Virus record (IMG/VR): IMGVR_UViG_2695420487_000003
Location: 1-10,598 of that record
DNA length: 10,598 nucleotides
Direction: 5' to 3' (one strand)
Origin: a virus
Taxonomy: Duplodnaviria > Heunggongvirae > Uroviricota > Caudoviricetes
Position 1 is the first letter of the stretch. Each line of letters opens with the position of its first letter. The notes below the pieces were generated by a model. The model searched no databases, had not been told where the DNA came from, and saw nothing but the letters and a program-made list of their open reading frames with translations. This document shows, piece by piece, positions 1-7,910 of this stretch. The translations under genes and the position numbers were made by a program.

Positions 1-326
1 GGGGTGATACTTTTGCCGTCCGCCGGTACCGGAATATTCGCAACCGCATCATTCACCGCCTGCTGCAGTACATCCGGATCATAATCACGACCATCACGCG
101 GTACCGGAATGGTCCCCACAGCGTCATCCACCATCGCCTGCAGAACCGGATGTACCTCATCCACCGTCACATGCTTCTGTAATACCGCCGACAGGGAAGC
201 CAGTTTCTCTTCAAACGCTTGTGCCTGCGCGGCCATCTTCTCCTCAAATGTGCGCTGTAAATCCGCCAGCACCGTGGCGAATTCTTCGCCCAGTGCACGA
301 ATAATGGACAGTTCCCGTTCCGTCAT
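1..326 (-). CDS. hypothetical phage head-module protein, N-terminal fragment (gene continues past the left edge of the window)
   Basis: Minus-strand ATG at 326-324 overlaps the portal stop (ATGA coupling). The frame stays open to position 1; my hand translation reads MTERELSIIRALGEEFATVLADLQRTFEEKMAAQAQAFEEKLASLSAVLQKHVTVDEVHPVLQAMVDDAVGTIPVPRDGRDYDPDVLQQAVNDAVANIPVPADGKSITP. Absent from the ORF track because it is truncated. No family recognised. Confidence 0.5.
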   Translation of the reverse strand, partial: MTERELSIIRALGEEFATVLADLQRTFEEKMAAQAQAFEEKLASLSAVLQKHVTVDEVHPVLQAMVDDAVGTIPVPRDGRDYDPDVLQQAVNDAVANIPVPADGKSIT

Positions 327-1687
327 TTTCGCAGTATCCCCCTCAACATCGCTTTCAACGCACCATGCTCTGTTTCACTGATTGCCTTATTACAGTCAGA
401 TGCGCCGTCAGGCAGTTGGGCTGAAACTCTTTTCCCGGACGACGCAAACGGATCTTCACGGGCATCACGACGGGACAGCGCCTCCAGACTGTAGTTCTGC
501 TGCTGAAGATACAGTGCATCACCGCCGGCCAGGGGCGGCAGGTTCTCACGTTTACGGGCCTCATTGGGCGTGAGAAGCGTATTTTTCACCGACTCACCCA
601 GCGTTTTCATGCGCCGTTCGCTGTCCATTCTCAGCAGCGTGGTGACGTCAAACTCCGTACTCTCGTTTTCCCCCGTTTCCAGCGCCTCATCCAGTAACAG
701 TTCAATGGACTCAATCAGCGTCTGCAGGCACTGGGAATAATACTGCTGCTCCAGCGCCTCCACGTTGTCACTGGAAGGTGGCTGGCCAACGCCAATCTTG
801 TAGGCCGGGACACGGAACACCGAACAGACAATTTCAGCGGTCATCTTCAGTTGTTCCACCGTCTGCGCATCCACCGGTGAAAACGTCGTGGGGTTGTATT
901 TTGCCCCGTTGCTCAGAATGGCCGTTTTCCCCGCATTTTCGCCGGTATACCCGCTGTCCCAGTTGCTCTTCAGTTTTTTCGCATTTTCTTCCGTAATACT
1001 GCCGGGGATCTCAATCACCCCGGACGGCCTGCCGCCATTTCTGAAAAAAGACGTCGAATTTTCCTGAATATGATGCCCCTGCGTGGCCGCCAGCCCGGCG
1101 GCATACACCGGCGGCAGCCCCACAAGCGGATGAAAAAAACAGTTAAACCGGTCGTGGATCACTTCCCGGGCAGGCACCGTCACCGCCTCCGTGATCCCGC
1201 AGTTCCGGTCCGGCGTGATGCGATAGAACACCTCGCCGTCATCCGCCACCAGAGGTTCAACCCGGTTCCAGTCCAGAATACGCAGTTCTTTGATCTGCCC
1301 CCGGGAGTTACGGATTTTCAGCACCACCGTATTGCCGTGACGCAGTTTGGCGTTCAGCCACAGTTCAAAAAACTGGATACGATTCTGCTGTGAATTGGGA
1401 CGACGACAGAGGCGGGCAATATCCCCCTGCCGTTTTTCACGGCGGATCCCCTGTGTATCTGTCTGCATCAGGCGCAGCCGCATTTTGGCGATATCCTGGG
1501 ATATCAGCGAAATGCAAGAAAACACCGCATGAAAGGAGAGGACACTTTCCGGATCGGCTTTCACACCCTGCTGCCAGGCGCCGGCAAAGGGCTCAGCCAC
1601 CGCCTGAAACAGGCTGGTCCAGCCCACCTCTTTTACATCACGTCCTGATTTCTGGTTTTTTCGGGTTCGTCGCAAAAAGTTCCACAT
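323..1687 (-). CDS. phage portal protein, HK97 family-like
   Basis: 454-aa ORF. Segments typical of HK97-type portals: AVFSCISLISQDIAKMRLRL near the N-terminus, FFRNGGRPSGVIEIPGSITEENAKKLKSNW, and SPVDAQTVEQLKMTAEIVCSVFRVPAYKIGV resembling the conserved portal FGVPPxLxG region. ATG at 1687 has GGAG about 8 nt upstream and an in-frame stop one codon further up. Sits in a terminase/capsid module. Confidence 0.8.
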   Translation of the reverse strand: MWNFLRRTRKNQKSGRDVKEVGWTSLFQAVAEPFAGAWQQGVKADPESVLSFHAVFSCISLISQDIAKMRLRLMQTDTQGIRREKRQGDIARLCRRPNSQQNRIQFFELWLNAKLRHGNTVVLKIRNSRGQIKELRILDWNRVEPLVADDGEVFYRITPDRNCGITEAVTVPAREVIHDRFNCFFHPLVGLPPVYAAGLAATQGHHIQENSTSFFRNGGRPSGVIEIPGSITEENAKKLKSNWDSGYTGENAGKTAILSNGAKYNPTTFSPVDAQTVEQLKMTAEIVCSVFRVPAYKIGVGQPPSSDNVEALEQQYYSQCLQTLIESIELLLDEALETGENESTEFDVTTLLRMDSERRMKTLGESVKNTLLTPNEARKRENLPPLAGGDALYLQQQNYSLEALSRRDAREDPFASSGKRVSAQLPDGASDCNKAISETEHGALKAMLRGILRK

Positions 1688-1898: not shown

Positions 1899-3836
1899 TC
1901 AGCCGCCGGACGCACTGCCGTAGTTCACACCGGTGATCACAGCCACCGCCGCAGTACGGCGACGACGCCAGTTGATCCAGCGCTCCGCACGGATGGCCAC
2001 GCTGCCGGTCTGGAACATGGAAACCAGCTCCACCGGCGACGGTGTGGTGCTGTCGCCGCCCGGCTCAGACTGCATTTCCAGTGACGCTTCACGGGACATA
2101 TCCACTGCCACACCGCCGTCATCCGCCAGATAAATATCCGGTGCATTCACCAGTACCAGCTGGTCACCCACATACTGGGAGACAATCACCGGAAGCCCCT
2201 GAAAGATCCCGCCCAGCAGGGTCATGTCCGGATATTCCTTCTGACCCAGCGCATTTTTACGCATGGACAGCGCCAGGGCATTGGTGCTGGACATCAGCCA
2301 GACCGCACCAGTGGGCTGCAGATTTGCCGTCACAAACTGGCCAAACGCGGCCTCGGCATCCGCATCCGGGTTACCGGTTGATGCCGTGCCCTTCACATCA
2401 TGGGTGATGGACGCCGGGGAGACATCTGCCACTGCAGCTTTTTTCGGGTCCACAAAGTCTGTGTCCAGACGCGCCACCACCGCTTCTGCCAGCGCATTAC
2501 GGACCAGCGCATCAGCTGCCGGACTGGAAAAACGGATCAATTCTTCCGTCAGTACCGCAATGGCCGACACTTTCGCATGACTGAAGGTGATGGATTCAAA
2601 ATCAAACTTCGTCAGGGGTTTTGCCTTACCCTCACCCACCCAGCCGGCAGCACCGCCGGACACCTGGGCGTGCACACGGATATTGAACGGCACCTGACGA
2701 AGTGCAGGGATCCCGCCCTGACCAAATCGCCCGATAATGGTCTGCGGACGCAGGTAATCAATAAAGTCCTGTGCGTATTCCTGATATTCAGACAGGCTGC
2801 CTGCCCACTGCGGATCCGTGGTGGTCCCCGCGCCCACTGCCGATTTCAGGACATGATGCAGACGACTGTCATCCGGATACTGACGACGGGCCACTTCCAG
2901 GGCTTCAGATCGGACGCCTTTAGCCGCAGCCAGCGATTTGGCAAAGCGGGCGAAGCCAATCCCCTTCTCCAGTTTCTGCTCCACACGGATCACCGGCGCT
3001 GAAGCCACCGCGGCCACATTCCCGTTACCGGCCTGTTTCACCGGCTGCGCCGTGGCGGCCTTACCGGCTTCCAGTTCACGCAGGCGCTTCAGGTGCGCAT
3101 CCACCTGACGGATTTCCGCTGCGGTGTTGTCGTAATGCTCTTCCTCCTCCACATCCAGCGTGCGCCCTTCCTCTGCGGCTTTGGTCATGACCTCCTCAAG
3201 GGAGGCTGCCAGCGCTGCACGCTTGTTTTCAAAACTTTTAATCTGTTCGCCAATATTCATTATGGTCTTTTCCTTATGAAAAACGGTTGTTGACTGTGCC
3301 GCAGCGCCGGCAGAAGATGCGATTTTCACCACCGGTTTCCGGTTGCCGGACGCGGCAGAAAACGGGCGGTCGTAAGATTTAATGGTCCGGATGGTGCATT
3401 CCGCATTCGCGGGCACGGTGACGGCAGACACCTCCATCAGTTCCCAGCGCAGAAAATGCAGTCCGCCTCCGTCCAGAAAGGTGTATTCATGGGGACGGAA
3501 GCCCACGGACAGCCCCCTGACCAGCCCGGTCTTAATGGCCGCCCAGACCTCATCCAGCCGGGCTGCCATCTGGGAGGGCATCCCCGGCTCCGGCTTCACC
3601 AGCATTGCCGTGATTTCCAGCCCTTCCCTGACCCGACGCACCGTACACTGGCCTACAGGGCGGGAATGGTCATGCTGCCAGAGAAACGGGATCGTACTGC
3701 CAAACTCCGCCCCCTCCGGCTCCAGGATGTCACCATCCCGATCCGGAGAAGGCGTTGACGCAATCCCGGTGATCACCCGTTCATCCTCACTGAAGGATTT
3801 CACCGTCAGCAGGGAACAGGCCCGTTTAAGAGTCAC
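1899..3836 (-). CDS. fused prohead protease (HK97 family, S78/U35-like) and HK97-fold major capsid protein
   Basis: 645-aa ORF. GTG start at 3836 sits 5 nt downstream of a perfect AGGAGG. N-terminal part has prohead-protease-like motifs (RVITGIASTPSPDRDGDILEPEGAEF, LMEVSAVTVPANAE). A charged, coiled-coil-like segment follows (KRAALAASLEEVMTKAAEEGRTLDVEEEEHY, LKRLRELEAGKA). The C-terminal roughly 350 aa look like an HK97-type major capsid protein (GWVGEGKAKPLTKFDFESITFSHAKVSAIAVLTEELI, DTDFVDPKK). Assignment from motif memory, not a search. Confidence 0.7.
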   Translation of the reverse strand: MTLKRACSLLTVKSFSEDERVITGIASTPSPDRDGDILEPEGAEFGSTIPFLWQHDHSRPVGQCTVRRVREGLEITAMLVKPEPGMPSQMAARLDEVWAAIKTGLVRGLSVGFRPHEYTFLDGGGLHFLRWELMEVSAVTVPANAECTIRTIKSYDRPFSAASGNRKPVVKIASSAGAAAQSTTVFHKEKTIMNIGEQIKSFENKRAALAASLEEVMTKAAEEGRTLDVEEEEHYDNTAAEIRQVDAHLKRLRELEAGKAATAQPVKQAGNGNVAAVASAPVIRVEQKLEKGIGFARFAKSLAAAKGVRSEALEVARRQYPDDSRLHHVLKSAVGAGTTTDPQWAGSLSEYQEYAQDFIDYLRPQTIIGRFGQGGIPALRQVPFNIRVHAQVSGGAAGWVGEGKAKPLTKFDFESITFSHAKVSAIAVLTEELIRFSSPAADALVRNALAEAVVARLDTDFVDPKKAAVADVSPASITHDVKGTASTGNPDADAEAAFGQFVTANLQPTGAVWLMSSTNALALSMRKNALGQKEYPDMTLLGGIFQGLPVIVSQYVGDQLVLVNAPDIYLADDGGVAVDMSREASLEMQSEPGGDSTTPSPVELVSMFQTGSVAIRAERWINWRRRRTAAVAVITGVNYGSASGG

Positions 3837-3899: not shown

Positions 3900-5561
3900 T
3901 TATATGAAAAAAACCTCATACGCTTTCTTTTTCGGTTCCGGATTCAGGGACATCAGGGACACCGCATTGAAGAGCGCCATCAGCGGGTCAATTTTTCCCC
4001 GTCCGCTGGCCTGTTTGGTGATAAGAATGGCGTTACCTTTAGGCTCCCCCCGGGCATTGCCAACGCACCAGGCCATCAGTGGCTGACCACCATGCACCAG
4101 CACTCCCTCAGCCAGTTTGCGCTCGGTGGTTTTGATGGCCCCGCCCAGCTTCCAGCCCTGGCTTATCCCCACCACACTCTCATCGGGGATCCCGGCTTCC
4201 GCCAGTGAATCCAGAATCTGCCCCACACCTGACGGGGCAATACCGATATGGTCCAGTAACTCAGCCTCATGAATACGACGCACATACTCCGCCACTTCCG
4301 CCGTGTCATCCCCGACCCGACGGACAATCGTCATGTCTCCACAGGCCACAAAATCCTGAAACCGGGATGCCTCACTCTTCCGTCTGACCACCGCGGTTTC
4401 ATGCACCCAGGCATGGCCCCAGCCCAGCCATTCGCGGGTTTCCCTGTCACGGCCAGTCACGTACATTCCCAGCAGATCATCCAGGCCCCCGCCGTCAATC
4501 CCCACCGTCACCACATCAGCGCGCTGCAGGATATCGTCCAGGCTGACGCGCCTGCCCTGCTGCTCCCAGAAATCCGCGCCCGCCCAGCGGTCAGAACGCA
4601 GGGCAAGACCGATTTCCACATTGGCGTGTTTTGACATGAAGCCACGAAATGCTTCCTCACCAGCCTCCCGGGCTTTACGGTACTCCCGGTACAGAAAAGC
4701 CTCATCCACCGAATAACCGAGATTCGGGTTAACCATGGCGAGGTTTTCCATCAGCAGGTGAGCCCCGCTTTCCACCATTTCAGGAGGGTGTTCAAATATC
4801 ACCGGCAGAAAGTGCGGATCATGAATTTTGCCGTCACGGACATCCCGGGCGTACTGCAGTTTCTGTCTGAACACCCCGGCTGGCGGCTCATTCGACTGGG
4901 TGGTTGTGTACACCACAAATCCTTCCGGACGGGAGGCAAGCCCGCCGATGGCTTCACGTAGCATGTCTTCCGCTTTGTACTGCTTGCCAAACAGCCACAG
5001 TTCATCAATCAGTGTCCCCACGGACTTGATACCGGACACCGTATTCGGATCGGCTGCCACCACCTTCAGGGTGGTGTCCGTCACCCGATGGGTGATGGTC
5101 CGGATATGTGTCTGCACCTGACAGAGGTCATCCAGATCATCGTCCCGTCGCACCATATCCCTGGCAGGGTTGAAGGCGTTGGCCGCCACCTCCACGGTCG
5201 GGGCCAGAATGGTGTAGCCCGCCGCCTGCCGCCAGTTCAGTAACAGCGCCGTCATCATGATCCCCGCGGCCAGCGTGGACTTACTGTTTTTCTTGGGGAT
5301 AAGGATAAACACTTCCTTGATATGGCGTACACCGGTCTGCGCATCATAGGAGCCAAACAGGGCCGCCACCAGGTCAAACACCCACGGTGCGCAGGACTCC
5401 CCGAACGTCGGGCTACCCGGTGCATCCACAATCCGCAGTTGTTTAAAAATCGCCAGGGCATGTGCAGCCTGGTCCGGATAAATCGGAGCCGGAATAATCG
5501 ACAGTCCCTTTTGCAGGCGCTCTGCCCAGTCCGGACATGCCGTGCTCCATACAGGTATCAT
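3900..5561 (-). CDS. terL: terminase large subunit (Terminase_1 / COG4626-like)
   Basis: 553-aa ORF. ATG at 5561 overlaps the terS stop (ATGA). Deviant Walker-A-like ILIPKKNSKST; C-terminal GKIDPLMALFNAVSLM typical of the nuclease end of this terminase family. Lies directly downstream of a small-terminase gene. Confidence 0.85.
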   Translation of the reverse strand: MIPVWSTACPDWAERLQKGLSIIPAPIYPDQAAHALAIFKQLRIVDAPGSPTFGESCAPWVFDLVAALFGSYDAQTGVRHIKEVFILIPKKNSKSTLAAGIMMTALLLNWRQAAGYTILAPTVEVAANAFNPARDMVRRDDDLDDLCQVQTHIRTITHRVTDTTLKVVAADPNTVSGIKSVGTLIDELWLFGKQYKAEDMLREAIGGLASRPEGFVVYTTTQSNEPPAGVFRQKLQYARDVRDGKIHDPHFLPVIFEHPPEMVESGAHLLMENLAMVNPNLGYSVDEAFLYREYRKAREAGEEAFRGFMSKHANVEIGLALRSDRWAGADFWEQQGRRVSLDDILQRADVVTVGIDGGGLDDLLGMYVTGRDRETREWLGWGHAWVHETAVVRRKSEASRFQDFVACGDMTIVRRVGDDTAEVAEYVRRIHEAELLDHIGIAPSGVGQILDSLAEAGIPDESVVGISQGWKLGGAIKTTERKLAEGVLVHGGQPLMAWCVGNARGEPKGNAILITKQASGRGKIDPLMALFNAVSLMSLNPEPKKKAYEVFFI

Positions 5562-6121
5562 CCGCTTTCCTCATTCTGGTTATTCACCACCAGCCGGGGA
5601 GGTGGTGGCACCGCAAAACGGTTAGCCGCTTTTTTCGCGGCATCACCTTTTGCCGATTTTTTACCGGCATCGCCTTTTTTATGGTGCGTGAACTGCGCCA
5701 GACGCCAGGCCGCATCCAGTGCCAGTTTCGGATCAATGCAGAGGTTTTCCACCAGGATCCGCCCCATGGCTTTCACCGGATCGGGAAGACCATCCTCCAT
5801 ATATTCAATACCAGGAGACATCACCGCGGACGGTGGCATCTCCGGATTGTTTTCGTCCGGCTGTGGTATTGCAGCCACCTCACGGCGACGGGGTTTATCC
5901 TCCTGCTCTGATTTTTTCTGCCGGTAAACAGGAACCTCATCCACCTCCACCGTCTCGCACTGTTTACGGGCTATAAACGCGAGCACCTCCGGATCTTTTG
6001 CCAGCTGCGAGCCTTTAACCCTGGCGGTCTTCGCCGAATAACCGGCGGCAATGGCTGACGCTGTTTTGTTTTTCCCGGACATGAGCGCCAGCGCAAATTT
6101 TCGTTTTTGCGTTGTCAGCAC
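5558..6121 (-). CDS. terS: terminase small subunit (P27 / Terminase_2-like)
   Basis: 187-aa ORF. GTG start at 6121 preceded by GGAGGAGG. N-terminus LTTQKRKFALALMSGKNKTASAIAAGYSAKTARVKGSQLAKDPEV matches the conserved helix-turn-helix start of Terminase_2-type small subunits. Lys/Ala-rich C-terminus. Stop overlaps the terL start. Confidence 0.75.
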   Translation of the reverse strand: MLTTQKRKFALALMSGKNKTASAIAAGYSAKTARVKGSQLAKDPEVLAFIARKQCETVEVDEVPVYRQKKSEQEDKPRRREVAAIPQPDENNPEMPPSAVMSPGIEYMEDGLPDPVKAMGRILVENLCIDPKLALDAAWRLAQFTHHKKGDAGKKSAKGDAAKKAANRFAVPPPPRLVVNNQNEESG

Positions 6122-6410
6122 AGCCTCCTCCCGGGTCCAGAACGCACTCAGCCGGGTATGGTTCAGCCCATTTTTCCCGGCGTCTCATGCCGCAAATGTT
6201 AACTGCTGCCTGGTTAACATTTGCTGAAAAAGCCAGTTAACATTTTTTTCGCACAACAAACTGAATAATAAAGATAAAAACCGAAAAAATGCCCGGGCAG
6301 CCAGTTAACATGTTAACTGGCCTGAAACAGGAATTTTTTCTCTGCATGAGACGGGGGGCGGTGTCCGGGGCGATCGTTTTTTTCGCCGGATGATCCCCCC
6401 CCGGGTCGGG
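6122..6410. other. non-coding packaging-recognition region, candidate cos site (cosN/cosB-like)
   Basis: 289-bp interval between the HNH stop and the terS start with no convincing ORF. Contains the GTTAACAT repeat array, an A/T-rich tract (6244-6290) and a GC-rich segment (6351-6410) with G6 and C8 runs; its core GGGCGGTGTCC resembles the lambda cohesive end GGGCGGCGACCT. The HNH-cos-terS layout is typical of HK97-like cos phages. Confidence 0.4.
6192..6320. repeat. array of CAGTTAACAT / ATGTTAACTG decamer repeats including a perfect 20-bp palindrome
   Basis: Copies at 6196-6205 (ATGTTAACTG), 6211-6220 (tGGTTAACAT), 6234-6243 (CAGTTAACAT), 6302-6311 (CAGTTAACAT) and 6311-6320 (ATGTTAACTG). 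Inverted pair gcaaatgttaac (6192-6203) / gttaacatttgc (6213-6224); perfect palindrome ccagttaacatgttaactgg at 6301-6320. Confidence 0.8.
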
Positions 6411-6776
6411 TTACAGTCCGATGATGTCGTCTGCTCTGCCATGACCTCCGGACACCTCCGGCAGCATCGGGTCCGGCATACCACTCACCGCTTCACGAGC
6501 AGACTTTTGTCGATGGCATTCGGTACAGAGCGTCCAGAGATTCGTCTCCTCATTACCACCACCGAACTGAAGTGCAATGCGGTGATCGAGTTCACTGTCA
6601 CAGAGGTCAACCACACGACCACAGAGACAGCACTGCCCGGCATCCCTGAGCCAGATATGACGCTTGAGGGAAACACGTGCACTGCCACTGACACGACGCT
6701 GTTCCCCCTTCAGAATATTCACCCGTCGGGTGTTCAGAGTTTTGATTCTGCTCTGGAGTGTACGAAGCTCAGCCAT
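6411..6776 (-). CDS. HNH endonuclease (terminase-associated type)
   Basis: 121-aa ORF. ATG at 6776 with GGGGA 6 nt upstream. HNH/zinc-finger motif CCLCGRVVDLCDSELDHRIALQFGGGNEETNLWTLCTECHRQKS. Lies immediately upstream of the candidate cos region and terS, as in HK97-like phages. Confidence 0.85.
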   Translation of the reverse strand: MAELRTLQSRIKTLNTRRVNILKGEQRRVSGSARVSLKRHIWLRDAGQCCLCGRVVDLCDSELDHRIALQFGGGNEETNLWTLCTECHRQKSAREAVSGMPDPMLPEVSGGHGRADDIIGL

Positions 6777-6817
6777 GTAAAATCCCCGTCATATGGCAAT
6801 CAGTAAAGGAAATAAAT

Positions 6818-7018
6818 ATGTCATCGAAAAACCGGACCCGCAGAACCACAACCCGCAATATCCGTTTCCCCAATCACATGATTGAACAGATCAACATCGC
6901 CCTTGAGCATAAAGGGTCCAGTAACTTTTCAGCGTGGGTTATTGAAGCCTGCAGGAGAAGGCTGGCAACAGATGCAACGCATCTGCGTACGGCCAGCATG
7001 ACAAATAACGAGAAATGA
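6818..7018 (+). CDS. small basic protein, DUF3950/YlcI-like (prophage-associated)
   Basis: Internal ATG at 6818 of track ORF 6758..7018, preceded by AAAGGA about 8 nt upstream. 66 aa: MSSKNRTRRTTTRNIRFPNHMIEQINIALEHKGSSNFSAWVIEACRRRLATDATHLRTASMTNNEK. From memory this resembles the YlcI/DUF3950 family of E. coli prophages; unverified. Only convincing plus-strand gene in the window. Confidence 0.55.
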   Translation: MSSKNRTRRTTTRNIRFPNHMIEQINIALEHKGSSNFSAWVIEACRRRLATDATHLRTASMTNNEK

Positions 7019-7207
7019 ACGTTCGGTTTCTTCCACCATCGTACCGGACAGGCGACTATGAGGGGACAACGCCGCGCTCCGTTAACGCGGTAAACCCCGG
7101 TGTGTATCGTTTTTGATTATCCCCGCACACTCGCGCAGAGGAGTCTCCCTGTCGGGCTACGGTCATGGTTAATGCGGAAATACGGCGACGATACAGCGCA
7201 TAATGTG

Positions 7208-7756
7208 TCAGGCTTGAATACCTTTATCGAATCCCGGTAATAAAAACTGTCCCTGTCTCTCCAGACGTTCCAGCTTTGCAAGCAATTGAGGTTTTTTCGT
7301 TCTCCCCCAGCGATTGAGCAGACGGCCTGACATGCTGGCGACATCCTTCTCTTTCATGTACTCCAGCATTACGACGTTACGTTCTGCTTCATAACTTTCG
7401 CTGTACTTACGGAGTTCTGCTGACATCCAGTTAAACGCATTGATATAGGCTTCTTTAACAGCATCGGCTTTTGCCCCGTTAAATCCCATAACCAGCATAA
7501 CGAAGCCACTAAAGTCCATGCGGTAGTAAATCTGTTTCTTGTCAAAAATACCTAAGTCATTGATTTTCTCGACGGCCCCAAAATGGGTTGTCGAGAATTC
7601 CTCAGAACATCTCAAACATTTAATAGCCCTAATCACATGCTGATGGCGTTTACCAAATGCCCTGGCAATCTGGAAGGTGTCAGTTACCGGTTGACCTTCT
7701 GCTGCGGTAACTAACTGGCGAAAGTCGAAGTCATGATTCGCAATTAATTCATTCAT
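7208..7756 (-). CDS. Rha-family phage regulatory protein (Phage_pRha domain)
   Basis: N-terminal region QPVTDTFQIARAFGKRHQHVIRAIKCLRC...FSTTHFG...YYRMDFSGFVMLVMGFNG matches the Rha domain pattern (xVTxSxxIAExFGKRHxxVLRxI). Start placed at the ATG at 7756 (MNELIANHDF...); the track ORF extends to a GTG at 7825, which is an alternative start. Composition is more AT-rich than the head genes. Confidence 0.6.
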   Translation of the reverse strand: MNELIANHDFDFRQLVTAAEGQPVTDTFQIARAFGKRHQHVIRAIKCLRCSEEFSTTHFGAVEKINDLGIFDKKQIYYRMDFSGFVMLVMGFNGAKADAVKEAYINAFNWMSAELRKYSESYEAERNVVMLEYMKEKDVASMSGRLLNRWGRTKKPQLLAKLERLERQGQFLLPGFDKGIQA

Positions 7757-7910
7757 GGCGTTGCCTGCTTCTTTGAAATGAACCTTTGCCGCACAGGAAA
7801 CCAGCCCACCGAGGCTCGCCAGCACTAACTGGTATCCTCAAAGGCCCATTCCAAAGGGTCAGGTTCGGTGTTTATTGTGCGCTGCGGTGCGCGGTGAAAT
7901 ACCGGTACAA

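Follow-up and report, generated by a model that had tools for sequence, protein, structure and literature searches.

In phage HK97 the packaged DNA has 10-nt 3' overhangs, and the small terminase (TerS) binds a single 15-bp stretch (+15 to +29) that includes an A-tract (PMC11331095). In lambda the elements follow the order cosN, I2 (conserved and A/T-containing), R3, I1 (an IHF site), R2, R1 and Nu1, and the SPP1 TerS sites pacL and pacR share no common word (PMC4856287). The sequence specificity of small terminases has been described as not fully understood (PMC7672466). The locus considered here lies in a 10,598-nt stretch of Caudoviricetes DNA (the window; IMG/VR record IMGVR_UViG_2695420487_000003), where a 289-bp gap (6122-6410) separates the open reading frame (ORF) of an HNH endonuclease from terS. 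This interval is best interpreted, with a probability of roughly 0.7, as an HK97-type cos site carrying a lambda-cosB-like array of predicted TerS binding sites. An earlier reading of the sequence alone (the sequence-only reading) had proposed such a cosN plus cosB arrangement, with HNH followed by cos, TerS-type repeats and terS. That proposal is supported by the ends of a near-identical phage and by the conservation of the repeats. Coordinates of all features are collected in Table 1; positions preceded by a plus sign are counted from the cut towards terS.

The position of the cut and the type of end are predicted from a published measurement on the near-identical phage Lys8385Vzw. This phage was sequenced from induced virions (MT225100), and its large terminase (TerL) is 98.6% identical to that of the window. 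PhageTerm assigned it to the class cos with 3' ends, the cohesive end being CGCCCCCCCT (PMC7946995), and the report gives the 10-mer alone for its cos. The record closes with the tail ...GGACACCGCCCCCCCT and opens with the head CTCACGCAGAGAAAAAATTCC...CAGTTAACATGTTAACTGG (over longer stretches, ...GATCGCTCCGGACACCGCCCCCCCT and CTCACGCAGAGAAAAAATTCCCGTTTCAGGGCAGTTAACATGTTAACTGG). These ends align to window 6350/6351 and the 10-mer to 6351-6360, so that 6350 is the first base of the left end and the nicks would fall at 6351/6350 on the minus strand and at 6360/6361 on the plus strand. The sequence-only reading had sought cosN in a G+C-rich block (6351-6410) with G6 and C8 runs. The block is 72% G+C, its runs lie at 6353-6358 and 6395-6402, and the 10-mer coincides with its first ten bases, which puts cosN where it had been expected. 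The resemblance to the lambda cohesive end noted at the same time is superficial: GGGCGGTGTCC, located at 6356, agrees with GGGCGGCGACCT at only 9 of 11 positions, runs in the opposite orientation relative to the terminase genes and shares just 5 nt with the predicted overhang; the ends are predicted to be of the HK97 type, 10 nt long and 3'. To judge from the sequence, the cut site of the window is HK97-type, not lambda-type. Among relatives, position 9 of the 10-mer is polymorphic. Apart from Lys8385Vzw, no record in the phage collection begins or ends within the interval; the Burkholderia vB_PR5 and Pseudomonas CF53a records open only a few bases ahead of terS, off the homologous cut, and give no second mapping of the ends.

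The likeness to HK97 concerns genes and DNA alike. HNH lies directly upstream of cos, and terS and terL directly downstream, which is the gene order of the HK97-type module. The two TerL proteins belong to the same family, and HK97 TerL (6z6d) was the sole PDB sequence match of the window TerL (E = 4e-8). Ends of 10 nt with 3' polarity are found in HK97 and in the window relative Lys8385Vzw. The right end of HK97 has a G9 run, GGGGGGGGGATCA, 42 nt to the cut, and ends in GACCGCCGCCAAA, with the 10-mer CGCCGCCAAA; its counterpart in the window has a G8 run, GGGGGGGGATCA, 44 nt to the cut, and ends in GACACCGCCCCCCGT. Both 10-mers begin with CGCC, the G-run precedes the cut by 42-44 nt in both, and in both an A/T-tract lies within ~30 bp inside the left end. 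However, HK97 has a TerS of the gp1 type, whereas that of the window belongs to Terminase_2 and carries an SF6-like helix-turn-helix; HK97 has one TerS site and a 49-bp gap before terS, compared with five copies of an 8-bp word and a gap of 229 bp here; and HK97 gp74 shows no significant pairwise similarity to the window HNH protein. Just upstream of the G-run, the HK97 right end (L297, 510-570) and the loci L092, L097, L098, L100 and L103 carry A/T-rich tgaaatcatttcaaatg and aatgataNcaattatca repeats, which are loosely Fur-box-like and absent from the window.

The 8-bp word GTTAACAT occurs exactly five times in the window, always in the stretch from the cut to terS (31-155 bp inside the left end), and nowhere outside 6196-6317. 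The count compares with 0.14 expected, and none of 200 dinucleotide shuffles of the whole window reached five. The sequence-only reading had counted five decamers here. The five exact 8-bp copies bear this out, but the full decamer is found in only four of them, as CAGTTAACAT at 6234 and 6302 and as ATGTTAACTG at 6196 and 6310, the copy at 6213 reading TGGTTAACAT. Its perfect 20-bp palindrome (6301-6320) and its A/T-rich tract were both recovered, the symmetry of the former running to 22 bp. The palindrome consists of two overlapping copies of the word, with its centre 40 bp from the cut, and the three distal copies (sites C, D and E) lie at +105 to +155. The sequence-only reading followed plus-strand order; in gene orientation, HNH is followed by the G-run, the cut site, the palindrome, the A/T tract, three copies and terS. 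The A/T tract contains an IHF-like word, ATTCAGTTTGTTG (6254-6266, minus strand), which agrees with the IHF consensus WATCARNNNNTTR at 12 of 13 positions, a match of which there are 21 across the window.

On the terS side this layout resembles that of lambda, where an A/T-containing segment, a first site, an A/T segment with an IHF-type word and further copies lead to terS. The corresponding series in the window is core, AGAGAAAAAATTCC, palindrome, A/T tract with ATTCAGTTTGTTG, sites C, D and E, and terS, and I2 of lambda is comparable in position to the window A-tract at +12 to +17. Five copies, as a sequence pattern only, match the lambda feature of at least three copies of one word on the terS side. 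There are also differences. Lambda has 5' ends of 12 nt (GGGCGGCGACCT), compared with 3' ends of 10 nt in the window relative; the families of gpNu1 and gpA are replaced by Terminase_2 and by TerL_ATPase with TerL_nuclease; and the window has an HNH partner, a palindromic first site made of two overlapping copies, and five copies rather than three.

The interval is widespread and strongly conserved. It is 95-99% identical in 94 phage records, which comprise Stx1a, Stx2a and Stx2c converting phages and include 2851, BP-4795, 1717 and YYZ-2008 (the genus Pankowvirus includes phages 2851 and phi330); in these Pankowvirus-type Stx prophages, as in Lys8385Vzw, the element is the same as that of the window. 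Of 5426 complete E. coli genomes, 1244 have it as well, with up to seven copies in a single genome. In the records examined, neither cos nor the repeats are annotated, the feature column reading 'none' under the match among the matches listed. Wider relatives were gathered via TerS and via the core word itself, and the core is nearly invariant in more than 130 loci, TerL-less elements included. In relatives it reads GGGGGGG-(35-45 nt)-GGACACCGCxCCCCxT/CTCAyGCAsAGAAAAAATTCC (the slash marking the cut). Its hosts include Atlantibacter, Kluyvera, Enterobacter, Citrobacter, Erwinia, Pantoea, Serratia and Morganella, with weaker versions in Burkholderia and Janthinobacterium. A G7-G10 run stands at the same distance in all relatives, from the Enterobacterales to Burkholderia and Janthinobacterium, and in HK97, and AGAGAAAAAATTCC (+8 to +21) is invariant across the family. 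Loss of the repeats from related packaging modules, which the sequence-only reading had named in advance as evidence against itself, was not seen among the close relatives compared: all five 8-mers, the core of site C included, are unchanged in all 52 unique sequences of close relatives. Among 60 haplotypes of close relatives, nucleotide diversity (pi) is 0.016 in the non-coding DNA from the cut to terS, 0.015 at terS codon positions 1 and 2, 0.058 at terS codon position 3 and 0.093 at HNH codon position 3. The non-coding segment thus equals terS positions 1 and 2 and lies 3.6 times below terS third positions. By these counts and diversities, the repeats are not a product of chance and are evidently under selection.

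In prophages of the PPompW group (LC567818; L298, 1046-2504), an IS110-family element, ISEc20, abuts the G-run ~48 nt before the cut (~window 6399), and the stretch from the Q/tRNA region to ISEc20 has no annotated lysis or HNH gene. This prophage has lost the HNH partner and kept cos, terS and terL.

The protein most likely to read the word is TerS. Its membership of Terminase_2 follows from a PF03592 score above the cut-off and an N-terminal helix-turn-helix fold. In the AlphaFold model, a four-helix N-terminal domain (predicted local distance difference test score, pLDDT, >92 for residues 1-50) is followed by a disordered linker (residues 68-100) and a helical C-terminal part, residues 1-56 forming the helix-turn-helix DNA-binding domain. 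With Foldseek, this domain matched the DNA-binding domain of the SF6 small terminase (4zc3; TM 0.84, root-mean-square deviation 1.6 A, 30% identity), and it is similar, in structure as well as sequence, to the small terminases of phages PaP3 and NV1. The motif AIAAGYS is common to the window TerS and the SF6/SPP1-type small terminases. SF6 and SPP1 G1P thus have the same N-terminal fold, but these phages are headful (pac) packagers, whereas the window is cos-type with an exact repeated word. The linker (window 5820-5930, residues ~65-105) has pLDDT <50 and is prone to insertions and deletions: a 138-aa TerS form (P0032) lacks ~49 residues, and a 202-aa form (P0002) has a 15-residue tandem duplication.

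Alignment of eight lineages (the window, L184, L239, L240, L257, L169, L166 and L170), with 51-96% identity to the window from the cut to terS, reveals one architecture with changing words. In all but L170, the order is core, palindrome near +40, A/T tract, one copy, inverted pair and terS, and the inverted pair keeps its 9-bp spacer; ATTCA....GTT is invariant in all eight, while the sequence around it varies and the word is flanked, depending on the lineage, by TGG, CGAC, CGGC, TACC or CACC. The interval of L166 is 59% identical to that of the window and its architecture is unchanged, yet ATGTTTAy replaces ATGTTAAC in all five copies. The palindrome becomes TATAAACATGTTTATA, with both arms altered symmetrically, site C becomes ATGTTTATACCC, and the D/E pair becomes ATGTTTAC-AGGGCAGCG-GTAAACAT, with the 9-nt spacer and the symmetry retained. 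Its TerL is 96.6% identical to that of the window and its TerS (P0020) ~80% identical; the C-terminal half of TerS is nearly unchanged, seven substitutions lie in the N-terminal DNA-binding domain, and A30E, T32S and V35C fall where the predicted recognition helix (residues 33-41) begins. More generally, the repeated word shifts with the TerS DNA-binding domain (GTTAAC, GTTTAT/GTTTAC, GTTACAC): the helix motif ...KTAR... accompanies GTTAAC, ...KSAR... accompanies GTAAAC or ATAAAC, and ...KGW... accompanies GTTACAC, with AAGTTAAAG beside a fourth TerS class from unidentified hosts. Between lambda and phage 21, too, the word and the TerS DNA-binding domain change together.

Two types of E. coli element extend this series, as in both terS lacks a following terL and no HNH is found among the called upstream genes. 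In L170/L171 (about 1270-1500), AlpA precedes TerS, and L170 has an IS200-type transposase and TerS P0055; in L172/L173 (about 1330-1500), an AAA_25 or D5_N primase is found with TerS P0064 (243 member sequences) and a capsid-like gene. The cut-site core is almost unchanged in these elements, which have their own AAGTTACAC repeats and a TerS that reads KGW where others read KGS. They look like satellites that could borrow the TerL and HNH proteins of a helper while addressing their own DNA. Three different words are thus found among elements of one host species, E. coli, which argues against a host factor and for an element-encoded binder, and TerS is the only DNA-binding protein common to all these elements.

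These elements also bear on the possibility that the words are bound by HNH or TerL, or act via DNA shape, with TerS reading the invariant A-tract as in HK97. The +15 to +29 stretch bound by HK97 TerS does include an A-tract, AGAGAAAAAATTCC is invariant across the family, and between the window and L166 HNH has diverged as much as TerS. However, the window TerS is of a different family from HK97 gp1, and an invariant segment cannot account for lineage-specific words. Because TerS-only elements without HNH or TerL hold a private word beside the common core, and TerL is 96.6% identical across lineages with different words, this alternative is disfavoured and appears unlikely.

Another alternative is that the repeats are operators for a nearby regulator (Rha, the DUF3950 protein or another) that controls terS or HNH, as the sequence-only reading had suggested as a fallback in naming the Rha and YlcI-like (DUF3950) proteins. 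Operators typically consist of palindromic and inverted words, the repeats give a weak sigma-70-like match (9/12, plus strand, 6214-6243), and the word and the terS start codon overlap in short-type relatives, where an effect on terS expression is conceivable. Yet the same array stands beside KilA in 2851 and phi330, PerC in L174 and Rz1 in L166, and it is present in TerL-less elements, which contradicts the fallback. The word tracks TerS and not the neighbouring genes. The distance from word to cut is fixed, and there is no promoter match on the gene strand. In lambdoid phages, moreover, transcription from the late promoter normally runs through cos. Control by an operator can hardly be upheld here. 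The fixed distance to the cut, the conservation and the change of word with the TerS domain, in relatives and in TerL-less elements alike, all favour the cosB-like array.

A possible origin of the word is seen in relatives with a shorter spacer. Most relatives, among them Salmonella phage FSL SP-016, have just ~100 bp between HNH and terS, and their terS starts 40 bp past the cut, with GGAGGGTGTAAAC ATG TTA ACA. Here ATGTTAAC encodes the terS Met-Leu-Thr and forms an imperfect palindrome with a preceding GTAAAC, and +40 is the palindrome centre in FSL SP-016 as in the window. With a terS start at +40, all 26 distinct sequences have TTA for Leu2, giving GTTAAC; with a start beyond +200, all 44 have CTG, and GTTAAC is still present at +40, now non-coding. 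In Pantoea L102 and Morganella L105, the displaced start is ATG CTG ACA and lies closer to the cut, and L102 retains non-coding GTTAACCC repeats near +40. Since the word persists at +40 after displacement of the start, it is kept as DNA and not only as codons. In short-type relatives (for example L003, L086, L091 and L188), one more GTAAACAT copy precedes the cut by ~30 nt. Their terS ORF also contains an inverted pair, ATGTTTAyA-CCCCAGCr-GTAAACA, at +250 to +270 from the cut; it encodes NVYTPAVN in the linker and resembles window sites D/E, spacer included. A packaging signal may be embedded in the terS ORF of these phages. Two extra GTWAAC words in terS, at +380 and +420, were discounted as conserved Ala-Phe-Ile and Arg-Lys-Gln codons; such words occur by chance at ~1 per kb.

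The copies in the window might be neutral leftovers of repeated duplication of the terS 5' end (ATG TTA ACx, Met-Leu-Thr) and of a ~190-bp insertion, which together would have shifted the gene downstream. In keeping with this, ATGTTAAC is the terS start at +40 in FSL SP-016 and ~25 other distinct sequences, the window has ~190 extra bases between the +40 position and its GTG start, and sites D/E resemble the segment within the short-type terS ORF. But the array varies as little as non-synonymous sites do, with the five cores invariant in the 52 unique sequences, two of the five copies are inverted, L166 changed all five jointly while keeping the symmetry of the palindrome, and L166, L169 and L257 retain the architecture at 59-69% identity. 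The copies may well have arisen by duplication of the terS 5' end, which is compatible with their being functional; that they now function is indicated by their conservation and concerted change. Neutrality is accordingly a very improbable account of the array.

Several observations weigh against a cos site with TerS-bound repeats. The end mapping is one PhageTerm result, obtained from a relative rather than from the window prophage, and the 10-mers of the two differ by one base. The HK97 TerS reads an A-tract stretch, and the invariant A-tract at +12 to +17 could be the true TerS site here, in which case the repeats would serve another factor. HNH is 78.5% identical between the window and L166, so that this pair alone cannot separate TerS from HNH, and the link between word and TerS residues is suggestive, coming from a few, related lineages and not being statistical. 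The copies are spaced by 8, 68, 23 and 15 bp, without simple helical phasing. Morganella L105 and Janthinobacterium L110 and L111 carry their GTTAAC/GTTAAT or AACAT/ATGTT repeats 50-150 nt upstream of the G-run, that is, across the cut at the right chromosome end, and placement is therefore not universal in the wider family. Finally, the words are unmentioned in the literature searched, and binding by TerS is predicted from the co-variation of the word with the DNA-binding domain. Searches with the cos and repeat words (GGGCGGTGTCC, CGCCCCCCCT, GTTAACATGTTAAC) returned nothing phage-related among the top results. For Pankowvirus, 2851 and BP-4795, the literature searched yielded just the Lys8385Vzw paper and SfI, a phage that has a different packaging module, with the cos TGCCCGCCCC.

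If the interval is a cos site of this kind, TerL, aided by the HNH protein, would nick 10 bp apart, at 6350/6351 on the minus strand and 6360/6361 on the plus strand, and the staggered nicks would leave the 3' overhangs CGCCCCCCGT. The terS-bearing end would be packaged first, and the five GTTAACAT words on it would form the cosB-like array, with a bendable A/T tract and its conserved IHF-like word between the palindrome and the distal copies. The helix-turn-helix domains of an oligomeric TerS are predicted to bind the words, and the bound TerS would anchor the enzyme, place TerL and HNH on the cut site and set the positions of the nicks. The anatomy of the sequence, its conservation and the co-variation of the word with TerS are observed; a role of IHF or of bending, and which nuclease cuts which strand, are deduced.

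A more far-reaching and tentative proposal, which taken with all its parts is less probable than the cos site itself and on balance doubtful, is that packaging uses a two-part address, namely a near-universal cut core of HK97-like geometry, common to hosts from Enterobacterales to Burkholderiales, and a private, fast-changing TerS word. The word (GTTAAC, GTTTAy, GTTACAC or GTTAAAG) would be read by two or three residues of the recognition helix, with Thr32 pairing with GTTAAC, Ser32 with GTAAAC and Trp38 with GTTACAC. The ancestral site would have overlapped the terS start codon, with possible self-regulation, and the Stx-phage lineage would have freed the start codon by growing the site into a lambda-like five-copy array. 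If so, up to seven co-resident prophages could tell their own DNA apart, and TerL-less satellites could redirect the TerL and HNH of a helper to their own DNA.

Cos sites with repeats recognised by terminase are ordinary elements and not a new kind of system, and the cut reported earlier in a near-identical phage means that the cut site is already known. No description of the repeat array, or of how it co-varies with TerS, was found in the literature searched, in agreement with the sequence-only reading, which did not recognise the decamer as a described TerS recognition element. About one complete E. coli genome in four carries the packaging module, as do many Stx1- and Stx2-converting phages. 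Knowledge of the cut site and of the likely words for TerS makes prophage ends and packaging type callable from sequence and suggests which co-resident prophages or TerS-only elements a given terminase can package, which bears on the mobilisation of toxin genes. Matched TerS/word variants also provide a natural series for studying how helix-turn-helix cos small terminases read DNA.

Table 1. Features of the packaging region and neighbouring genes (window coordinates).
Feature	Position	Strand	Remarks
Rha-like gene	7825..7208	minus	
DUF3950 gene	6758..7018	plus	
HNH endonuclease gene, last before cos	6776..6411	minus	Pfam PF01844, 29.7 bits (cut-off 21.4)
G8 run (C8 on plus)	6395..6402	minus	45-52 nt before cut; conserved upstream element
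cosN core GGACACCGCCCCCCGT/CTCATGCAGAGAAAAAATTCC (cut between the two parts)	6330..6366	minus	conserved A-tract at +12 to +17
Predicted 10-nt 3' cohesive end CGCCCCCCGT	6360..6351	minus	homology to Lys8385Vzw cos
Sites A + B, 22-bp perfect palindrome GCCAGTTAACATGTTAACTGGC	6300..6321		two head-to-head GTTAACAT copies
A/T-rich tract	6244..6290	minus	23% G+C; between palindrome and distal copies
Site C, AAAATGTTAACTGGC	6232..6246	minus	
Sites D + E, inverted repeat ATGTTAAC-CAGGCAGCA-GTTAACAT	6196..6220		9-bp spacer
GTTAACAT copies	6196-6203, 6213-6220, 6236-6243, 6304-6311, 6310-6317	minus, plus, plus, plus, minus	exact match
terS leader	6122..6195	minus	Shine-Dalgarno GGAGGAGG at 6124-6131
terS, small terminase, GTG start	6121..5558	minus	Pfam PF03592 (Terminase_2), 35.9 bits (cut-off 26.1)
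terL, HK97-type large terminase	5561..3900	minus	Pfam PF03354 (TerL_ATPase) and PF20441 (TerL_nuclease)
Protease-capsid fusion	3836..1899	minus	Peptidase_S78 and Phage_capsid domains
Portal gene	1687..323	minus	

Other candidate features of the interval were set aside. A 24-codon ORF, MLTGCPGIFSVFIFIIQFVVRKKC (6237-6311, minus strand), has its ATG, the ancestral terS start codon, in the palindrome and its stop in site C; it is probably not a gene, as it has no Shine-Dalgarno sequence, and its frame, read by eye, is intact in L169 and broken in L239, L257 and L166. An inverted repeat, GCATGAGAC, at the cut and at 6176-6190, was dropped from the mechanism, not being kept in L239, L166 and L169. 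A single-strand DNA fold (z = -3.15) was not used, as it reflects merely the palindrome and pairing of the G-run with the C-run. No Rfam match was found in 5900-7100 at E up to 1. The terS leader shows no significant RNA fold (z = -1.26) and no conserved ORF; between site E and the terS start (6122-6192), its pi is 0.0056, the lowest of the HNH-terS region, and its sequence diverges in L239, L166 and L169.

The neighbouring genes on the minus strand follow the order Rha-like, HNH, the gap, terS, terL, protease-capsid fusion and portal. Homologous phage records label the HNH gene 'HNH endonuclease' or 'DNase'. Before the portal gene, the prohead protease and major capsid domains are joined in a single ORF of 645 aa (1899-3836, minus strand).

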